Positions 7,917 to 27,360 of a stretch of DNA of 27,360 bases are shown piece by piece. The notes beneath the pieces were generated by a model. That model searched no databases, was not told where the DNA came from, and worked only from the letters and a program-made list of their open reading frames with translations. The stretch's first letter is position 1; every line of letters begins with the position of its first letter. The DNA comes from Patescibacteria group bacterium. Its GTDB lineage: Bacteria > Patescibacteriota > Patescibacteriia > Patescibacteriales > UBA12465. The stretch is from positions 1 to 27,360 of the forward strand of contig JAVHRV010000128.1 of the NCBI GenBank assembly GCA_036171815.1, read 5' to 3'. The position numbers were made by a program, and so were the translations under genes.

Positions 7917-8630
7917 ATGTCTTATAAAATTCAAGATCATGTGACGATTTTAAATCATGGCCGACAATATGTTATGCGGGTTAAAGATCGCCCTGAGGAA
8001 GAAAGACCACGAGAAAAAATAATGCGCGACGGGGTTGGATCTTTAAGTTCAGCTGAATTATTAGCCGTCGTCCTGGGGGTCGGGACTAAAAAGGAAGAAG
8101 TGTTCGCTATGTCCAGCCGTCTTTTAAGAGAGTACGGGGAAAAAGGAATCGCCTATCAAAAAGATCCCCTTATAATTGAAAAAGATCTAAAAATCCCTAA
8201 CGCTAAAGCCTGCCAAATAGTCGCCTGCTTTGAACTAGGCCGTCGCTTTTATCAAAAAAAACCCGGTGGATCAATTACTATTCGAACCGCGGCTCAAGCC
8301 TTCGCTTATCTAAAAGATATGGGGAATTTGAATAAAGAACAATTCCGCGGACTCTATTTAAATACTCATTATCAGCTTATCCACGACGAAGTAATTTCTC
8401 TAGGAACCCTAGAAGCTTCCCTGGTTCAACCTCGAGAAGTTTTCCGACCAGCTTTGGAATATTCTGCGGCCGCGCTTATTATCGCTCATAACCATCCCTC
8501 CGGAGTTCTTAAGGCTAGTAAAGCGGATGTAGAAATAACCGACAAACTAATCGCCGCCAGCAATATCTTAGGGATAGATATTTTAGACCATTTAATAATC
8601 GGCAAAAATAAGTTTGCCAGTATTATTTAA
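7917..8630 (+). CDS. radC: RadC family JAB/MPN-domain protein (long, chromosomal form)
   Basis: RPREK, LSSAELLAVVLGVG, ELGRR, IGxGTLxxSLVxPREVF-like (ISLGTLEASLVQPREVF), AHNHPSG, ILDHLIIG. Confidence 0.93.
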   Translation: MSYKIQDHVTILNHGRQYVMRVKDRPEEERPREKIMRDGVGSLSSAELLAVVLGVGTKKEEVFAMSSRLLREYGEKGIAYQKDPLIIEKDLKIPNAKACQIVACFELGRRFYQKKPGGSITIRTAAQAFAYLKDMGNLNKEQFRGLYLNTHYQLIHDEVISLGTLEASLVQPREVFRPALEYSAAALIIAHNHPSGVLKASKADVEITDKLIAASNILGIDILDHLIIGKNKFASII

Positions 8631-8641
8631 TATTTAGATAA

Positions 8642-8695
8642 AATTAAGACTGGACGAGCTAAGCTTTAGAAGAGCCGGCTCGTCCAGTTTTAATT
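8642..8695 (+). terminator. Long inverted repeat, probably a bidirectional intrinsic terminator
   Basis: Arms aattaagactggacgagc (8642-8659) and gctcgtccagttttaatt (8678-8695): 17/18 complementary (the exception is G-U on +), perfect 11-bp core, T-rich on both sides, 12 nt after the radC stop. Confidence 0.65.
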
Positions 8696-8707
8696 ATTAA
8701 CACTAAT

Positions 8708-8989
8708 ATGCCAAAAAAATATAAAATTACGCCGCTGCTTTGGCTAATCAAAGATGAGGCCAGTATAAAATTTCATGTCAAAAGCCAGGATTATTTTGGC
8801 ACGATAGCCACTGTTTTATCTCTCTTAAAAGAACAAATTAAAAAAAGCGATATTAAAAATACCGCTTTGCTAGAAAAAATCCTCAATAATTTAGAGAAAG
8901 ATTTACTATTACTCCAAAAAAATTATCATATCAAACCGAACATCAAGAAAAGAAAAATAATGCCAAAAGGCAGACTCAATAACCAGTGA
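8708..8989 (+). CDS. Small hypothetical protein (93 aa)
   Basis: ATG with aat context like other genes here; helical, amphipathic-looking core (DYFGTIATVLSLL...LEKDLLLLQKNY). The 3' end overlaps the convergent O-antigen-ligase-like gene by 64 nt. Confidence 0.6.
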   Translation: MPKKYKITPLLWLIKDEASIKFHVKSQDYFGTIATVLSLLKEQIKKSDIKNTALLEKILNNLEKDLLLLQKNYHIKPNIKKRKIMPKGRLNNQ

Positions 8990-10224
8990 TCTAATAGCAT
9001 TAATATAATTAAAGCGCCCAAAATTGCTCCCGAATAAATATTGCGACGCTCTTTTTTAAGAAGAAACAGAAAAATCAAAAAAGCAATCAGGGCACCAATC
9101 CCGCTTTCCGCCCATAATAATAAAAAGACATTATGCACCGGTTGATAGTCCCAAACGTTTTTTTGATAATTATCTTGTTTTTCTGAGGCAACTACATAAT
9201 TCCCCGGGCCAATTCCCCACAGCCAATTTTTCTGAATCAGCCCCTGCGCTTCAACTAAATATTCCTGCCGCTCATTCCAAGATTTAAGTTCCAGGCGCGT
9301 CGAGGCGTCGACTCGAACTCCTAATAGATGACGATAAGGAACGGCGACAATAAAAATCATTAAGACTGAAAATAAAATTAATACGACAAAACGACCAGAG
9401 ACCCAATGGTCTTTTTTAAATAACAGTAAAATAAAAATATAAATAAGGCCAAAGGCGAAAGCGAGCCAGGCGGCGCGCGAAAAAGAAAAGAATAAGGCGC
9501 ATAAAGAAGTAAAGTAAAAAATAAACAAGAAAATTGATTCACCCATCTCCGCGGCCGAACGAATCATCTTTTTCTTAGCTAATAAATAAGCGGCAATAAT
9601 TAAAGCTAAAGCCAAAACGCCGCCAAAAATATTGGGATGGTCAAAACTCCCATAAGCCCGGAGCCAACGGCCGGAAGCTATTTCGACAACAGCCGCACCC
9701 AAAGTACTAGCATCATGATGCGCTAATCCTAAATATTTAAAAACCGGGGTTTGTTGATTTAAAAATTGATAAATACCGAGTACCGACTGGAGTAAAATAC
9801 CGGCCAAAAAACTATACAAGAGCTTAACCTTATTTAAACTCGGCTCTTCATAATTACTAACATTCAACCCAGAAAATAATAGATAAAATAAAGCTAAACC
9901 AACTAAAAATAAAATATAGTAATAAAAAGCAAGCACTTGATCACTGGCGACAAAAAAGGAAGCGAGAACAAATAAATCCAGACCCGCTAGCGACCACCAT
10001 AAACCAGATACTGGTTCATCTTGCTTATGCCGACGAATTTTATAAATAAAGAATAACACCAAAATAAAAAGCAATAAGACATGGCTCAAATACAAGCTAA
10101 TTTCGTTAAAATTAGAATTAGCCGGTCGCAAAATTATTTTAGTCTGCCAAGGCAATAAGAAGACGAATAAATAAAAAAGCGCTTCAATAAGTTGTCGAAA
10201 AAATTTGCTGAATTTTATTTCCAT
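8926..10224 (-). CDS. O-antigen ligase/Wzy_C-like polytopic membrane protein
   Basis: About 12 hydrophobic segments; RAYGSFDHPNIFGG, FSFSRAAW, WGIGPGNY, PVHNVFLLLWAESG, LLDHW motifs typical of Wzy_C proteins. Confidence 0.85.
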   Translation of the reverse strand: MEIKFSKFFRQLIEALFYLFVFLLPWQTKIILRPANSNFNEISLYLSHVLLLFILVLFFIYKIRRHKQDEPVSGLWWSLAGLDLFVLASFFVASDQVLAFYYYILFLVGLALFYLLFSGLNVSNYEEPSLNKVKLLYSFLAGILLQSVLGIYQFLNQQTPVFKYLGLAHHDASTLGAAVVEIASGRWLRAYGSFDHPNIFGGVLALALIIAAYLLAKKKMIRSAAEMGESIFLFIFYFTSLCALFFSFSRAAWLAFAFGLIYIFILLLFKKDHWVSGRFVVLILFSVLMIFIVAVPYRHLLGVRVDASTRLELKSWNERQEYLVEAQGLIQKNWLWGIGPGNYVVASEKQDNYQKNVWDYQPVHNVFLLLWAESGIGALIAFLIFLFLLKKERRNIYSGAILGALIILMLLDHWLLSLPFGIIFLFLMFGLI

Positions 10225-11106
10225 ATTTTTCTAAAATTTCTTGACGATTATCATGCTCATGGAACTTGAGTACCTGGTCGCTGATGATAACATGACCCGG
10301 CTTATTCCTCGCCGCTCTAATCGTCTGAGGTAATATCTTTAATTGTAGCATCTTAGCAAAAAATTCTAAATAGTCAATCGTTAAAAAGGGCGGTCGACCT
10401 AAACTAATTTTATCTTGAATCACCCACTCTGATTGAGCGCTACTCAAGCCCACTTCGTCTTTATTAACCGATAAAAACTGAGCGTATACCCCACCGCGGT
10501 CATAAAGAGAAAAAAATAACGACGCCAATAATGAAAATGGGGATCAAAAGCGGCAATTTTTAAATTATCAAGATTAAGTCGGTCGATAGTAATATAAAAA
10601 CTTAAACAAACCCGATCGCGCTTAACTTTAATGGTCGGTCGCTTATTTAATAATTTAGCTAAACCGGCACAATATAAACGACTCAACCAAATTCTTCCCG
10701 GCGCGCTAACAATAAAAAAATCTAAATCGCTACCATCGCGTAAATTATGATCACCAAAAGAATTACTTAAGGCGACTAGTCTAACAAAAGGACAAATTTT
10801 AAATAAATTAGCAAAGCGATGAGCAATTTTTAATTTACGACAACTATAATTATAGCGCTGTGCCCGAGTCACCACAATAGAATCACGTCCGACTAAAAAA
10901 TAAAAACCATTTTTCTCGGCTATTTTAGGTAGCGCGGCCTGATCTTCCTGTAAGACTCTAAGAATCTCTGACAGACTGACTAATCGATCTAAGTTTACCC
11001 AAATCTCATAAGCGGTTAAAGGATAGTCAAACAAATCAAAAAAAATAATTAACTTAACGACTGCTCGGCGCAAACCACTGTCCGTTTTAAAATCATCACT
11101 AAACAT
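10184..11106 (-). pseudogene. Nucleotidyltransferase-fold (Pol-beta superfamily-like) gene split by a -1 frameshift near 10510-10528
   Basis: 5' ORF carries FFDLFDYPLT and ALSNS...GSDLDFFIV and loses protein-like character after FHYW. The 3' ORF continues in the -1 frame (SLYDRGGVY...VIISDQVLKFHEHDNR). A T7 run on the coding strand lies at the junction. One added base gives a single 307-aa ORF from ATG 11106. Confidence 0.7.
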
Positions 11107-11107
11107 G

Positions 11108-12250
11108 TTATTCATTATTTTTAGGTCGATCAATATGTAAAACCTCTACCTGGCCTTTAACCTCGGTAATTTTAGTCACATCTTTATCAATTTTCTTAAA
11201 CTCTAAATAGGCATTATTATAATGATTAACCGTCGTCGACATGGAAACTCCCAATTTTTTCATGAATTCGTCATAACTACTAATATGCCGCTGTAATTTT
11301 TCGATATTCGCTCTAATTTCTTTAGCTTTTTCCTCAATTTGCATCGCCTTTAGTCCCTGCAAAACTGTTTGTAAATAAGCTAAAAAGGAAGTGGGCGAAA
11401 CAATAATAACCTTTTTATCACGGAAGGCATATTCAATTAGATCGCGGGTATTAACTTTAACTACCCCCACCGAATTGACCAATAAATCATAATAAATCGC
11501 TTCGGAAGGAATAAACATAAAAGCAAATTCTAAAGTGTTCTCGCTAGGTTTAACATATTTAGCTGTTTCATCAATCCGATTCTTTAAATCAGCTTTAAAT
11601 TGAATTTCTAATTTTTTGCGAGTCTCCGCGTTAGTACAATTAATTAATTTTTCATAATTTTCCAGAGAAAACTTGGCGTCGACGGGGATAATTTTATCTT
11701 TTACAAAAACTACCGCGTCAACAATGGTTCCGTCTTTAAAGGGATATTGCATCTGAAAAGACTTGGGTGGCAAAACATTTTTTAAAGTTTCTTCTAAAAA
11801 ATATTCGCCTAAAACACCGCGCTGTTTAGGATTTTTTAAAATATCTTGTAGATTCTGGAGTTGTGCCGAAAAATTCACTACCTGCTTATTGGTTTCATCA
11901 AGCTTAGTCAGTTTCTCGGTCACGTCCGCAATTAATTTAGCCGATTGCGAAGTAATATTTTGAACAATTTTAGCATTTTGACCAAATTGTTCTTGATTGG
12001 TACGATGGGTTTCTGATAATTTACGGTCCAGCTCCTGGCGCAATTCACTATTTTGCTGCGCCAGCTGAACTAATTTTTCCGATTGACGAATCGAACGCTC
12101 CAGAGCTTCGTTATTCTGTTTCTCCAGCTTTTCCATGATCTCCTCTATCTTCCCACCAGTACCATTTTTCCGGCGCAATAACAAAAAAATGACCGTGATT
12201 ATTCCGATCATGAGAACTACTAATAACAATATGATTAAAAAACTATCCAT
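11108..12250 (-). CDS. rmuC: DNA recombination protein RmuC
   Basis: N-terminal TM, coiled coil, then NPKQRGVLGE, Q..F.DG..VDAVV, IPVDAKFS, AFMFIPSEAIY, VSPTSFLAYL. Confidence 0.93.
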   Translation of the reverse strand: MDSFLIILLLVVLMIGIITVIFLLLRRKNGTGGKIEEIMEKLEKQNNEALERSIRQSEKLVQLAQQNSELRQELDRKLSETHRTNQEQFGQNAKIVQNITSQSAKLIADVTEKLTKLDETNKQVVNFSAQLQNLQDILKNPKQRGVLGEYFLEETLKNVLPPKSFQMQYPFKDGTIVDAVVFVKDKIIPVDAKFSLENYEKLINCTNAETRKKLEIQFKADLKNRIDETAKYVKPSENTLEFAFMFIPSEAIYYDLLVNSVGVVKVNTRDLIEYAFRDKKVIIVSPTSFLAYLQTVLQGLKAMQIEEKAKEIRANIEKLQRHISSYDEFMKKLGVSMSTTVNHYNNAYLEFKKIDKDVTKITEVKGQVEVLHIDRPKNNE

Positions 12251-12270
12251 ACAGTTACGAACTATTTAAA

Positions 12271-12729
12271 TTACGCTTCTCTGCCCGATTTTGTTTTTAA
12301 TAAATCCCTAATTTCTGCCAGAAGCTCTTGATCCTTAGTAAGTGGCTTAGCCTCTTCTTCTTTTTTCTCACCCTCGGTAACCATTAATTTCAATTGGGCT
12401 TTTAGTCGGCCGATCAGCTTGACCATAAAGAAAACTGCGGCAGCAACAATTAAAAAATCTAAAATATTTTGAATAAAATTACCAATGTTGACAGAAACGG
12501 CCGGCGCTAAAACCGCTCCCGTCGTGTCTAAAACCGCGCCCTTGAGTACAATTTTGACGTCAGAAAAATTTATCCCTCCCATTAAAACGCCGATCGGTGG
12601 CATAATAATATCGGCCACAAAAGAAGAAACTATCTTGCCAAATGCACCACCGATAACGACCGCCACCGCTAAATCAAGAACATTACCTTTGATAGCGAAC
12701 TCTTTAAATTCTCTAAGATATTTTTTCAT
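12271..12729 (-). CDS. mscL: Large-conductance mechanosensitive channel
   Basis: [65 protein letters not shown]. Confidence 0.98.
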
Positions 12730-23700: not shown

Positions 23701-23739
23701 ACATTAATATATTAATATTTGGCACCAATTAGCAAATTA

Positions 23740-23832: not shown

Positions 23833-24807
23833 ATGTTTTCTTATCGTGCCTTACTAAAACAATCTTTTTCGGCCACTTGGCAATATAAACATTTATGGTT
23901 ATTTGGTTTATTCGCCGCGATTGTCGCCGGCAGCGGATCTTGGGAGTATCAATTACTAACTCAAAACCTAAATCAGAGTCTTATTGATGGCTCCTATCTT
24001 TTCTTCAGTCAATTCGTTAGCGCCGTTGATTTATTAAAAAGTTTCGCTCTGGGTCTAGTAGAACTATTCACCTATGATTTTTGGACAATCCTGAATGCTC
24101 TGACCGTTCTACTCTTATCAATTATTTTAATCGTAACTTTCATCTGGTTAGCAATTATTTCTCAGGCGGCTTTAGTCGATGACGCTAAAAAAATATTAAA
24201 CAACAAAAAAAAGGAAATTAAACTAAGTATTCGCGAAAGTTTTACTAAAGTATCGCCCTATTTTCTGCCCGTTCTATTCCTCAACATCACCGCCAAACTA
24301 CTAACCACTTTTATCTTCGTCATTATCAGCCTGCCGCTCCTCCTGATGGTTATAAATGATACCTGGCTTTTAGCAACTATTTATACAATTCTTTTCGTAT
24401 TATTTATCCCTTTATCCTTAGCGATATCTTTAATTATAAAATACGCCATCGCCTACACCGTTTTAGAAGAAAAATCTCTAGTCGCTTCTTTAAACCACGC
24501 TTGGAAATTATTTCGAGATAACTGGCTAGTGAGCGTAGAAATGGCTATAATTTTATTTATCATAAATTTCTTAGCCAGCGGGGTGATTGTCATTATCTTA
24601 TCTATCTTCCTACTCCCCCTTCTCCTGTTAGGCTTAATGCTTCAAATAAGTTGGCTCGCCAATTTAATTATTTTCCTGGCTATTATTCTGATTGTTATTT
24701 TTGGTTCCATCCTGGTAACCTTTCAAATCATCTCTTGGACTAAACTTTTTTTAAGCTTGAAAGAAAATAATGTTCTCGCTAAGCTAGAAAGACTCTTCCA
24801 GCGCTAA
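23833..24807 (+). CDS. Polytopic membrane protein of unknown function (324 aa)
   Basis: ATG at 23833 (MFSYRALLKQSFSATWQYKHLWLFGLFAAI) preferred to the track start; multiple TM helices with two pseudo-repeats (SIRESF..V and SLVASL.HAW); 24 nt upstream of the PilB-like gene. Confidence 0.75.
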   Translation: MFSYRALLKQSFSATWQYKHLWLFGLFAAIVAGSGSWEYQLLTQNLNQSLIDGSYLFFSQFVSAVDLLKSFALGLVELFTYDFWTILNALTVLLLSIILIVTFIWLAIISQAALVDDAKKILNNKKKEIKLSIRESFTKVSPYFLPVLFLNITAKLLTTFIFVIISLPLLLMVINDTWLLATIYTILFVLFIPLSLAISLIIKYAIAYTVLEEKSLVASLNHAWKLFRDNWLVSVEMAIILFIINFLASGVIVIILSIFLLPLLLLGLMLQISWLANLIIFLAIILIVIFGSILVTFQIISWTKLFLSLKENNVLAKLERLFQR

Positions 24808-24831: not shown

Positions 24832-27360
24832 ATGAGTGATTTCGACTCTATCTCTAAGCTAATTAACCCGACCGATGATGAAGAGAGCATCACCGGTCGT
24901 TTTGCTAAAAAGCAAGATGAGATAAAATTAAAAGAAATTGAAAAACAAACTAAAAAAGAGGCTGATGATTCCGGTTTAGATTACGTTAATTTAGCCGGTT
25001 TTCCTATCAGCCCCGAGGCGCTCTCCCTGATTAGTGAAGAGCGCGCCCGAGAATTAGCTGCTGTCTGTTTTTATTATGATGGCAAAAATATCCGTTTAGC
25101 CTGTCTAGAGCCGACCGAACAAGTCGAAAACGAGCTAATCGATTTAAAAGAACGTTATTTCGCAGAAATCAGATTATATCTAATATCAAAGTCGAGTCTA
25201 GACCTAGCTTGGCTGGCCTATAAATCTCTGCCGAAAACAAAAAAATATGAACAGGGATTAGAAATAAACGAAGCCAGCTTAGAAAAATTTAAAGAAGCAA
25301 TTACTAGCTATCATAATTTAAAAGAAAAAATAAATGACGTAAATATTAGTGACATTATCACTCTAATAATGGCGACCGTTATTAAAGTCGGCGGCAGCGA
25401 TATCCATATTGAAGCCGAAGAGGCCGATGTCGCTATTAGAATTCGAATTGATGGCGTTTTACAACAAGCCGCCACGATTAGTAAAGATAAATGGTCAAAA
25501 ATAGTCGCTCGCTTAAAAATACTAGCTAAGGTAAAAATAAATATCACTAACAAACCACAGGATGGCCGTTTTTCTATTTATTTAACCAATAAAAATATTG
25601 ATGTCCGCTGCTCCTTCTTACCGACGGCTTATGGAGAAAGCGTCGTGATGAGAATTCTAGATTCGGCCGCAGCCGGTTTAGAATTTGACGAGCTTGGTAT
25701 TCGCCCGGAGATACTACCGATTCTAAAACGAGAAATCTCTAAACCTAACGGCCTTATTTTAACGACCGGGCCAACGGGATCGGGAAAAACTACCAGCTTA
25801 TACGCTATTTTAGATAAGCTTAACCAACCCGGCACAAAAATAATTACCTTAGAGGATCCAATTGAGTATCAAATTAAAGGAATTAATCAGAGCCAAGTTG
25901 ATAACAAACGCGGCTACACTTTCTCTGATGGACTACGATCTATACTCCGCCAAGATCCTAATGTCGTGATGGTCGGAGAAATCCGAGATTTAGAAACCGC
26001 TGAAATAGCTGTCCAGGCCTCCTTAACCGGCCATCTTGTCTTATCAACTTTACATACCAACGACGCGGCTGGCGTTATCCCCCGCTTAATCGACATGGGC
26101 GTTAAACCTTATTTTTTAGTTCCCTCAGTTAATGCGGTCATCGGCCAACGATTAATTAGGCGCCTATGCCCCCATTGCCGAAAAGAAAAAATCTTGACTC
26201 CGGAAGAAACAGAACAAGTTAATAAAATATTAGCGGTAATTTCCCCGAAGGCCGGAGTGGCTGTCCCAGCTGATTTGCCTAAAATATATCAAGCGGGAGC
26301 GGGTTGCGAATTCTGTAGTGAAATTGGTTATAAAGGACGCTGCGGCATCTACGAAATTTTTACCATGAACGATAAAATAAAACAGTTAACTGTCGACAAC
26401 GCTCCCTCCTTTAAAATTCTTCAACAAGCCGTAGAGGATGGGATGATTACTATGCTCCAAGACGGCGTTCTCAAGGCTCTGGAGGGAATCAGCTCTTTAG
26501 AAGAAGTCTATCGAGTAATTGGAAACTTCGATTATATTAATGAACTATACGATATAGTGATTTCTCAAACAATTGGCCGAGGCATAAAAATAAAACCAGC
26601 CGAAATTAAATTAGCCGCTGAACTGAGCCGTGATATCACTAAAATAGCTGAAACAATTAAAGAAATACCAACTGGTAATCTAGTTAGCTTAGTCATGGCC
26701 TTAGCCGTATCGTCTGACGCGGGGGATCTGCATATTGAACCGACAGAAAATGACGTTAAAATTCGTTTTCGAATTGATGGCGTTCTGCATGATATTTTAA
26801 ATCTCCCTAAAACTAGCTACTTACCCTTACTATCGGAAATCAAAATTCTGGCGGGCGAACCGACTAATATTAAACGGGCGACCTTCGATGGACGATTTAG
26901 TATTTACTTCGCGGAACGCAAAATAGATTGTCGTCTTTCTATAATCGCTGGCGGTTACGGAGAAACTATTGTTATCCGCCTACTTTCTTCTTCGGCCGCC
27001 AATCTAGATATGGCGAATCTCGGTATAACTTCCGTCGCCTTCGACGCCCTACAATTAGCCATGAAAAAAACCCGCGGAATTATTATCACAACCGGTCCAA
27101 CCGGGTCGGGAAAAACCACTACTTTATACAGTATTTTAAATAAGCTAAATCGACCTGATGTTAAGATAATTACTGTCGAAGATCCTATTGAATATCAACT
27201 ACCCGGTATTATGCAAACCCAAATTGACGAAGAACGCGGCTATACTTTTCCAGCAGCCATGCGCTCTTTACTGCGACAAAATCCTAACATCATGATGATT
27301 GGCGAAATCCGCGACTCCGAAACAGCTAAAGTCGCTATCGAGGCTACGCTGACCGGCCAC
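24832..27360 (+). CDS. Type IV pilus/T2SS assembly ATPase (PilB/GspE family) with two tandem ATPase modules; runs off the right edge; not in the ORF track
   Basis: Manual translation: 843 codons without a stop from ATG 24832. N-terminal GspE-N-like domain, then module 1 (SDIHIE, RIDGVL, PQDGRF, GPTGSGKTT 25768-25794, TLEDPIE, RQDPNVVMVGEIRD, TGHLVLSTLHTND, CPHC..CEFC), then module 2 (GDLHIE, RIDGVL, GPTGSGKTT 27094-27120, TVEDPIE, RQNPNIMMIGEIRD, TGH at the edge). Confidence 0.95.
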   Translation, partial: MSDFDSISKLINPTDDEESITGRFAKKQDEIKLKEIEKQTKKEADDSGLDYVNLAGFPISPEALSLISEERARELAAVCFYYDGKNIRLACLEPTEQVENELIDLKERYFAEIRLYLISKSSLDLAWLAYKSLPKTKKYEQGLEINEASLEKFKEAITSYHNLKEKINDVNISDIITLIMATVIKVGGSDIHIEAEEADVAIRIRIDGVLQQAATISKDKWSKIVARLKILAKVKINITNKPQDGRFSIYLTNKNIDVRCSFLPTAYGESVVMRILDSAAAGLEFDELGIRPEILPILKREISKPNGLILTTGPTGSGKTTSLYAILDKLNQPGTKIITLEDPIEYQIKGINQSQVDNKRGYTFSDGLRSILRQDPNVVMVGEIRDLETAEIAVQASLTGHLVLSTLHTNDAAGVIPRLIDMGVKPYFLVPSVNAVIGQRLIRRLCPHCRKEKILTPEETEQVNKILAVISPKAGVAVPADLPKIYQAGAGCEFCSEIGYKGRCGIYEIFTMNDKIKQLTVDNAPSFKILQQAVEDGMITMLQDGVLKALEGISSLEEVYRVIGNFDYINELYDIVISQTIGRGIKIKPAEIKLAAELSRDITKIAETIKEIPTGNLVSLVMALAVSSDAGDLHIEPTENDVKIRFRIDGVLHDILNLPKTSYLPLLSEIKILAGEPTNIKRATFDGRFSIYFAERKIDCRLSIIAGGYGETIVIRLLSSSAANLDMANLGITSVAFDALQLAMKKTRGIIITTGPTGSGKTTTLYSILNKLNRPDVKIITVEDPIEYQLPGIMQTQIDEERGYTFPAAMRSLLRQNPNIMMIGEIRDSETAKVAIEATLTGH

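Follow-up and report, generated by a model that had tools for sequence, protein, structure and literature searches.

Why would a member of the Patescibacteria carry a PilB-type ATPase with two motor modules in a single chain, and what might such a protein drive? We examined these questions for the window, a stretch of 27,360 nucleotides (nt) that is an entire contig (JAVHRV010000128.1) of a Patescibacteria group bacterium whose genome assembly (779 kb in 145 contigs) is 90% complete. The tandem PilB-type ATPase gene is a single open frame of 843 codons at positions 24832 to 27360 of the plus strand, and its 3' end is open at the contig end. Judged by the full-length homologues P0002 and P0278, the window holds the 5' 84% of a gene of ∼1,004 codons. 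The Pfam model T2SSE (PF00437) matched two stretches of the 843-amino-acid (aa) product with 645.7 bits, against a cutoff of 24.9, and the modules scored 407.8 and 244.6 bits when taken separately in a genome scan. The single-chain PilB-PilB fusion is genuine, and it is conserved in one Patescibacteria order, where ∼45% of the genomes sampled carry it.

The protein begins with an N-terminal region (residues 1 to 141; positions 24832 to 25254) in which a coiled or helical lead is followed by a candidate N1D, an alpha/beta domain of the GSPII/MshEN type, whose match to PF05157 (MshEN/GSPII) is weak and falls below threshold (residues 48 to 126; 22.3 bits against a cutoff of 23.1). Module A (residues 142 to 564; 25255 to 26523) was recognized from T2SSE, motifs, and Foldseek. 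It consists of an N2D and a RecA-like C-terminal domain (CTD) and carries a Walker A motif at 25768 to 25791, an Asp box, the catalytic Glu of a GE motif, a His box, and a CxxC...CxxC zinc motif. The intermodule linker (residues 565 to 583, NFDY...TIGR; 26524 to 26580), recognized from its constant length and shared motif, is predicted to form one helix and a short hinge. Module B follows, with residues 584 to 843 of 584 to 1004 in the window (26581 to 27360). This portion, recognized from T2SSE, BLASTP, and motifs, comprises the N2D together with the first half of the CTD. It carries a Walker A motif at 27094 to 27117, an Asp box, an RQNPN variant, and the GE motif and breaks off at the first His-box His; the remainder is known from P0002. 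An earlier note on this DNA had described two complete modules in one frame. The single frame, the two modules, and the one N-terminal domain, which is present once per tandem chain, all stand, but module B is cut inside the window at ...TLTGH.

The two modules are in register. Four pairs of landmarks lie in frame and are offset by exactly 1,326 nt, as the note had reported: GLEI/GIKI at 25255/26581, DIHIE/DLHIE at 25399/26725, GPTGSGKT at 25768/27094, and RQDP/RQNP at 25948/27274. The description of an exact, indel-free 442-residue repeat is correct within the window, but beyond it the offset falls to 439 to 440 through small indels in the zinc-loop region. At the 1,326-nt offset, modules A and B are 57% identical in DNA, and BLASTP aligned them without gaps over 239 aa at 49% identity (E value of 1e-83), a resemblance in sequence that is far beyond chance. 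P0002, a 1,004-aa protein encoded in a different assembly, matches the 843 aa of the window at all but one residue and supplies the second His, the zinc motif, and the C terminus of module B. The C terminus that had been sought beyond the window is therefore at hand: both the second His box and the zinc motif are present in P0002, module B is full length, and the stop comes only after residue 1004. P0278, also of 1,004 aa, belongs to the same 90% cluster as P0002 and lies on an 822-kb contig. The missing 3' end was not found in a search across this genome's own assembly, where the sole match was module A's own equivalent.

To see how widely this architecture occurs, we ran a word-indexed protein search with residues 430 to 843 as the query and grouped the matches at 90% identity. 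This gave more than 120 clusters of 1,003- to 1,007-aa proteins that were 73 to 100% identical over those residues, on contigs of up to 977 kb. The proteins came from NCBI, JGI, ENA, and Logan assemblies, hundreds of independent assemblies in all; where the databases named them, they were called "GspE/PulE family protein," "type II/IV secretion system protein," or "PilB" and were assigned to Patescibacteria or Candidatus Falkowbacteria. A survey of genomes with a junction-spanning query (residues 520 to 700) found the entire junction within a frame of ∼1,004 to 1,043 aa in 55 of the 121 sampled genomes of the window's order (two of these frames were shortened by contig ends), including all 12 genomes of the window's family. 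In the rest of the phylum, true tandems were found in 3 of 400 sampled genomes (G376, G123, and G077). Nearly all of the remaining genomes, 25 of them from other orders of the same class, had only single-module PilBs of ∼550 to 600 aa. The tally of 400 takes in one unpublished genome, G154, on which no specific claim depends. An exhaustive HMMER scan of 1.84 billion representatives (clusters at 50% identity) recovered ∼14 tandem clusters of 978 to 1,047 aa. Tandem-like frames in G093, G313, G338, G377, G369, G325, and G043 were rejected as pilB and a downstream pilT joined by reading through stop codons, or as single PilBs with long N termini. In the tandem protein of G123, the second Walker A motif deviates from the strict G[PSA][TS]GSGK[ST] pattern.

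Both modules look catalytically competent from their sequences. When 77 single PilBs were aligned with 41 A modules and 41 B modules from the main family, 83 columns were at least 90% conserved in the single PilBs, and of these columns module A keeps 97.5% and module B 91.3%. We then judged individual residues across 49 tandem proteins, taking their likely equivalents in PilB from motif and spacing; the roles of the catalytic, arginine-finger, and pore-loop residues are those described from the Geobacter metallireducens PilB structures (PMC5424180). Kept in modules A and B, respectively, are the Walker A Lys (K319/K761), the Asp-box Glu residues (E341 and E345/E783 and E787), the GE-motif catalytic Glu, an atypical Walker B (E383/E825), the His-box T-G-H...H (H401 and H408/H843 and H850, the last seen via P0002, outside the window), and the arginine-finger equivalents, two Arg 15 residues apart (R259 and R274/R701 and R716). 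The tetracysteine zinc motif, which sets the PilB/GspE clade apart from PilT/PilU (PMC5424180), is formed by C446/C449/C492/C495 in module A, within the window, and by C888/C891/C931/C934 in module B, past the window in P0002. These catalytic and Cys residues are mostly invariant, with R274, C891, and C931 conserved at 90% or above, and the pore loop 1 Glu (E388/E830) is at least 90% conserved in each module. Module B is the faster-evolving of the two: module A was the more conserved in 95.5% of 820 protein pairs (which are not independent of one another), with mean identities of 56.0% and 50.0%. In most lineages, module B also has fixed changes of its own, namely, S189 to G631, the loss of the Q of QDGR, P264 to S/A, and RQDPD to RQNPN.

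The predicted structure agrees with this layout. We modeled the full 1,004-aa protein as a monomer with AlphaFold2 from a 49-sequence alignment, and the domains were confident (mean predicted local distance difference test [pLDDT] of 84.3; predicted template modeling score [pTM] of 0.50). An alpha/beta domain was predicted at about residues 50 to 132, with a pLDDT of ∼85 to 90, where the candidate N1D lies. The linker was modeled as a helix at residues 567 to 580 with low pLDDT at 580 to 582, which mirrors the helix at 120 to 132 and the hinge at 135 to 140 ahead of module A. Foldseek comparison with PilB (5TSH_E; TMt, 0.90) and PilF (5OIU_B; TMt, 0.94), at root mean square deviations of 1.9 to 3.0 Å over ∼390 columns, indicated that the N2D-plus-CTD fold is present.

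Among known systems, the closest likeness is to PilB, the ATPase of type IVa pilus extension (G. metallireducens 5TSG/5TSH/6OLJ, Geobacter sulfurreducens 5ZFR, and Myxococcus xanthus 3JC8) and Thermus PilF (5OIU, 5IT5, and 6F8L). Each tandem module has the same N2D-plus-CTD fold (TM-score of 0.90 to 0.94; ∼41 to 44% identity) and the same Walker A motif, Asp box, catalytic Glu, His box, two arginine fingers, pore-loop Glu, and tetracysteine zinc motif, and a candidate N1D-like domain stands at the N terminus. The tandem protein differs from PilB in its two modules per chain, in having no adjoining pilC, pilM, or pilin genes, and in the family-specific substitutions of module B (S to G at 631, Q of QDGR lost, and RQDPD to RQNPN). 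Module B alone had its best sequence matches among the type II secretion ATPases GspE/EpsE (Vibrio 1P9R, 4KSR/4KSS, and 4PHT; E values of ∼1e-89 to 1e-91), and it aligned end to end with GspE/PilB structures in general at ∼1e-88 to 1e-91. GspE/EpsE shares the zinc motif and an N1E-N2E-CTE layout; in contrast to it, the tandem modules occur in Patescibacteria, without an outer membrane or type II secretion context, the gene has no GspL or GspF neighbor, and the modules are in tandem. On the grounds of sequence, motifs, and fold, each module is a PilB/GspE-clade ATPase, while the protein departs from the family, with its one motor module per chain, by having two and by lacking pilus-gene context. 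We found no chain with two T2SSE modules in the PDB, no description in the literature of a tandem, fused, or double PilB or of two ATPase domains in the candidate phyla radiation/Patescibacteria, and no published natural tandem in the PilT/VirB11-like family. A prior characterization of the architecture, which would have removed its novelty, was therefore found neither in the literature nor among structures. Linked P-loop motor modules are known from other ATPase families: KaiC and p97/NSF/ClpB form stacked rings, EccC carries three FtsK-like domains, dynein has six AAA+ modules in one chain, and single-chain ClpX pseudohexamers have been engineered. As in the tandem protein, motor modules are covalently joined in these systems, which lets sites specialize.

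How the second module arose can be approached from the linker and from a tree of the modules. The linker has 19 to 20 residues, close to the ∼20 first estimated, and a common motif is kept in every main-family lineage from this order to distant classes (e.g., NFDYINELYDIV..., DAKYIEELYGQA...). In the predicted structure, it resembles a duplicate of the final N1D helix plus the hinge, and this resemblance points to a plain internal tandem duplication as the event: a duplication of ∼442 codons, starting in the last N1D helix, would have made the ∼1,004-aa protein. We placed 100 modules in a maximum-likelihood tree with Shimodaira-Hasegawa-like approximate likelihood ratio test (SH-aLRT) support. 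B modules fell mostly into one clade, and A modules did not. The B clade comprised 23 of 26 B modules and the third module of a triple protein (SH-aLRT of 96); the sole "single" entries within it are two short ones that cover just the 3' portion of tandem proteins and resemble fragments from contig edges. The main-family B modules and linker thus have a common origin. In the window's order, in contrast, the A modules grouped as sister (SH-aLRT of 95) to single PilBs from within that class and order, and a single clade of all main-family A modules, a group named after the tree had been seen, was rejected by an approximately unbiased test (delta lnL of 129; P = 1e-4). Any of three histories could account for the A modules: one ancient fusion with subsequent losses, resident genes converting module A, or lateral spread of a 3' cassette.

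Such fusions also arose more than once. In P0128, P0130, and P0135, modules A and B are sisters (SH-aLRT of 100, 99, and 84, respectively) that share 70%, 53%, and 43% identity, and the linkers, of 11, 7, and 32 residues, are unrelated to that of the main family. Because of these sister relationships and unrelated linkers, we regard the three as independent duplications, so that together with the main family the sequences argue for at least four separate events. In addition, P0080 (a 77-kb JGI metagenome contig, L052, positions 8001 to 12383) is a protein of 1,460 aa in which a single N-terminal domain precedes three complete PilB modules. Its two linkers are homologous to the tandem linker, and its modules B and C are sisters (57% identical); therefore, the triple form derives from a tandem via a second duplication.

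The genes around the tandem ATPase bear on what it might do. Directly upstream in the window is a polytopic membrane protein of ∼325 aa, a conserved 5' neighbor (likely 23833 to 24807, plus strand, with the longest frame starting at 23719) that ends 24 nt before the ATPase start. It had no match above threshold in Pfam, and its nearest relatives are DUF7544-, DUF7847-, and GPDPase_memb-like proteins. With these relatives and no T2SSF signal, a PilC-like identity was rejected. Past the window end, the gene order was read from close relatives. In P0002, the stop codon is followed by a gene for a translin-family protein. In close relatives (L025, 5751 to 6326, and L026, 13018 to 14089), a bacterial translin-family protein (PF01997; E value of 3.6e-18) and a Metallophos_2 phosphoesterase lie downstream at gaps of 2 to 36 nt. 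Of 20 tandem loci in about ten families of the order, 17 had the membrane protein directly upstream on the same strand and 17 had translin directly downstream, mostly at very short gaps. The membrane protein is also directly upstream of the tandem gene or its single-module orthologue in at least two other genomes of the class. No T2SSF or other pilus gene was found among the identified neighbors in the window and 26 related loci; the tandem gene thus lacks the genomic association with PilC (T2SSF), PilM/N/O, or pilins that is typical of type IV pilus systems.

Genomes of the order without the tandem have two kinds of single-module PilB, which we call type 1 and type 2. Type 1 proteins are orphan PilBs of 566 to 618 aa that are 51 to 55% identical to tandem residues 3 to 562 and have the same N-terminal motif; they are sister to the A modules of the order, and they end in ...VFRVAE, with neither linker nor B module. 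Their loci (e.g., L053 to L056, L059, and L063) have the same arrangement as that of the tandem gene, i.e., membrane protein, PilB, translin, and phosphoesterase. Type 2 proteins are 39 to 41% identical to the tandem protein and adjoin PilT and/or PilC in the loci examined. Based on the locus, N-terminal motif, and relatedness of type 1, we conclude that the tandem gene is a derived form of this orphan PilB paralogue.

Further observations on gene context concern other lineages and the remainder of the window. One distant tandem lineage (L049 in G376, L051 in G077, and the triple in L052) had a gene for a DHH-family phosphoesterase immediately upstream in all 3 loci, and RuvB and a bPH_2 protein were close by. 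In another lineage (L050, from G123), the tandem had serine hydroxymethyltransferase and two CheY-like receivers as neighbors, the receivers being directly downstream (L050, 5754 to 6547). Positions 1 to 23700 of the window are almost all coded on the minus strand and hold housekeeping genes: RuvB, an AddA/UvrD-type helicase-nuclease (1,038 aa), a PGA_cap protein, an M16 peptidase, RadC, an O-antigen-ligase-like protein, RmuC, MscL, GyrA, NDK, two metallo-beta-lactamase-fold proteins, a class II aminoacyl-tRNA synthetase, ArgRS, and TyrRS. GC skew is negative throughout the window and climbs toward zero at the switch in gene strand at ∼25 kb.

We next asked how the tandem protein relates to the ordinary pilus machinery. 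We checked 10 well-assembled tandem genomes, namely, five of the window's family, two of other families in the order, and three of other classes. All 10 also carry at least one canonical single PilB, almost always directly beside a PilC gene, and in none of them was a PilC found near the tandem gene. The tandem locus and the canonical pilB-pilT-pilC cluster of such relatives lie apart. In the assembly of this genome, neither a single-module PilB nor a PilC was found. Its T2SSE matches were the two tandem modules and two PilT-like genes (on contigs C28 and C78), and a prepilin peptidase is encoded on C7. Because PilB and PilC adjoin in relatives, one unassembled locus would explain both absences, and pilB-pilC of this genome is probably on an unassembled piece. 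The earlier note had suggested that the tandem protein is a pilus motor. With no pilus gene nearby, the locus of an orphan paralogue, and a canonical PilB in all 10 tandem genomes checked, a role as the cell's pilus motor was not borne out.

Taken together, the gene encodes a genuine ∼1,004-aa PilB/GspE ATPase with one candidate N1D and two N2D-CTD modules, and we consider it probable, with moderate confidence, that it was derived by tandem duplication and acts as an accessory A-B-A-B-A-B ring motor. In this mechanism, three chains would close one six-module ring with three N1D domains, converting the usual homohexamer into a C3 pseudohexamer. Both kinds of site would hydrolyze ATP, and both modules would line a central pore that engages a membrane partner, either a shared PilC or the adjacent membrane protein. 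Compared with PilB, the proposed ring would hold two chemically distinct types of site and only three N1D domains, with the protein serving as an accessory PilB-type motor with built-in asymmetry and not as the primary pilus motor. Such a trimer of covalent heterodimers is plausible. A single ring is favored because only double and triple forms were seen, both being divisors of six; because two of the independent tandems have linkers of just 7 to 11 aa; and because the pore-loop Glu, the presumed contact with the platform, and the residues at packing-unit interfaces are kept in both modules.

The symmetry of such a ring deserves comment. Published PilB rings follow a C2 CCOCCO cycle that repeats every three packing units (PMC5424180, PMC6858323), and the earlier note had invoked this two-fold cycling, but an ABABAB ring sets A opposite B, so that the fusion breaks C2 symmetry. 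C3 OCOCOC states are known for PilT, FlaI, and DotB; such a state would match the chain symmetry of (AB)3, while an (ABC)2 ring of the triple form would match C2. The type II secretion platform PulF is reported to be trimeric (PMC10790770), which would make a C3 motor less odd. As to the cellular role, the protein could be an accessory motor that shares PilC; alternatively, it could drive the adjacent membrane protein, perhaps in connection with nucleic acid handling.

Other explanations have to be weighed against the accessory ring motor. An artefact, either two adjacent pilB genes joined by misassembly or a decaying pseudogene, has in its favor that the contig ends inside module B, but we give it almost no credence. 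In hundreds of independent assemblies, including contigs of 0.8 to 1 Mb, the junction, frame, and length are the same, and this recurrence excludes misassembly; further, modules with 57% DNA identity are too unlike to confuse an assembler, and catalytic residues are kept in both. It is also unlikely that the tandem protein serves as the main motor of type IV pilus extension, replacing ordinary PilB and docking on PilC/PilM with three N1D domains. Its sequence, zinc motif, and fold do place it in the PilB/GspE clade, and the T2SSE matches of this assembly include no single PilB beyond the two modules and the two PilT-like genes. However, PilC is likewise missing from an assembly that is 90% complete and in 145 contigs, which points to an unassembled pilB-pilC locus; canonical PilB stands beside PilC in all 10 better-assembled tandem genomes; the tandem gene was beside pilus genes in 0 of 26 loci examined; and its single-module orthologue is itself an orphan paralogue.

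The geometry and the partner could each be otherwise. Six chains might instead form a stacked double ring, with coaxial A and B rings, one of them facing the membrane platform. By analogy with KaiC, p97/NSF, and EccC, tandem ATPase domains in one chain often stack; the AlphaFold2 model leaves the arrangement of the modules unfixed; and the faster evolution of module B would be expected if its ring had a different role. Against this, the pore-loop Glu and every intersubunit catalytic residue are kept in both modules, where a platform-distal ring should relax them, only double and triple forms were seen, and each chain has one N1D. Although none of these points is decisive, we judge the stack improbable. 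A different proposal concerns the partners: the ATPase could belong to a distinct machine together with the DUF7544-like membrane protein as platform, a translin/TRAX-type nuclease, and the metallophosphoesterase, for instance, in nucleic acid uptake or processing. The kept gene order with very short gaps (17 of 20 loci on either side), the same neighbors around the single-module orthologue, and the DHH-family phosphoesterase upstream in all three loci of the distant lineage, including the triple-module gene, are consistent with this. But the synteny may be mere inherited gene order within one lineage, other lineages have different neighbors, the membrane protein belongs to a family that is found in phyla such as Chloroflexota as well, and the partnership, read from gene order, is putative. 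We hold this machine as a doubtful but somewhat more credible proposal than the stack. A similarly tentative proposal goes further: tandem and triple proteins would be natural covalent pseudohexamers, (AB)3 with C3 and (ABC)2 with C2, that evolved because the sites of the motor differ in the course of its cycle. The (AB)3 form would run an OCOCOC-type or symmetry-broken CCOCCO cycle, and with the DUF7544-like protein and translin-type nuclease it would form an unrecognized nucleic-acid-scavenging envelope machine of Patescibacteria, apart from the canonical type IV pilus.

It is important to note that several points weigh against the accessory A-B-A-B-A-B ring motor itself. There is no dedicated PilC, as the number of PilC genes equals that of canonical PilBs in the genomes checked, and in this genome the tandem protein may be the only assembly ATPase. 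The pTM of 0.50 makes the placement of the modules relative to each other uncertain, so that the model does not decide between ring and stack. The solved PilB rings all cycle with C2 CCOCCO (PMC6858323), which an ABABAB ring cannot strictly obey and could follow only pseudosymmetrically. Moreover, P0128, P0130, and P0135 are singletons known from one NCBI contig (7 to 40 kb) apiece, and the triple-module form is known from one contig only.

The double and triple forms, the duplications numbering at least four, and the substitutions fixed in module B suggest, at the level of sequence, selection for site asymmetry. This matters for the family because the firing order of the six sites in PilB/PilT-type motors is still argued from crystal and cryo-electron microscopy snapshots, as C2 CCOCCO, C3 OCOCOC, or C6 (PMC5424180, PMC6858323). 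In a natural chain with two or three nonidentical modules hard-wired together, each class of site can be mutated on its own. In other ring ATPases, this has needed engineered single-chain constructs. For the organisms, the tandem protein is a second PilB-type motor in cells whose lifestyle is thought to rely on pili and DNA uptake. Encoded away from pilus genes, beside a membrane protein and a translin-type nuclease, it may mark an unrecognized function of the cell envelope.

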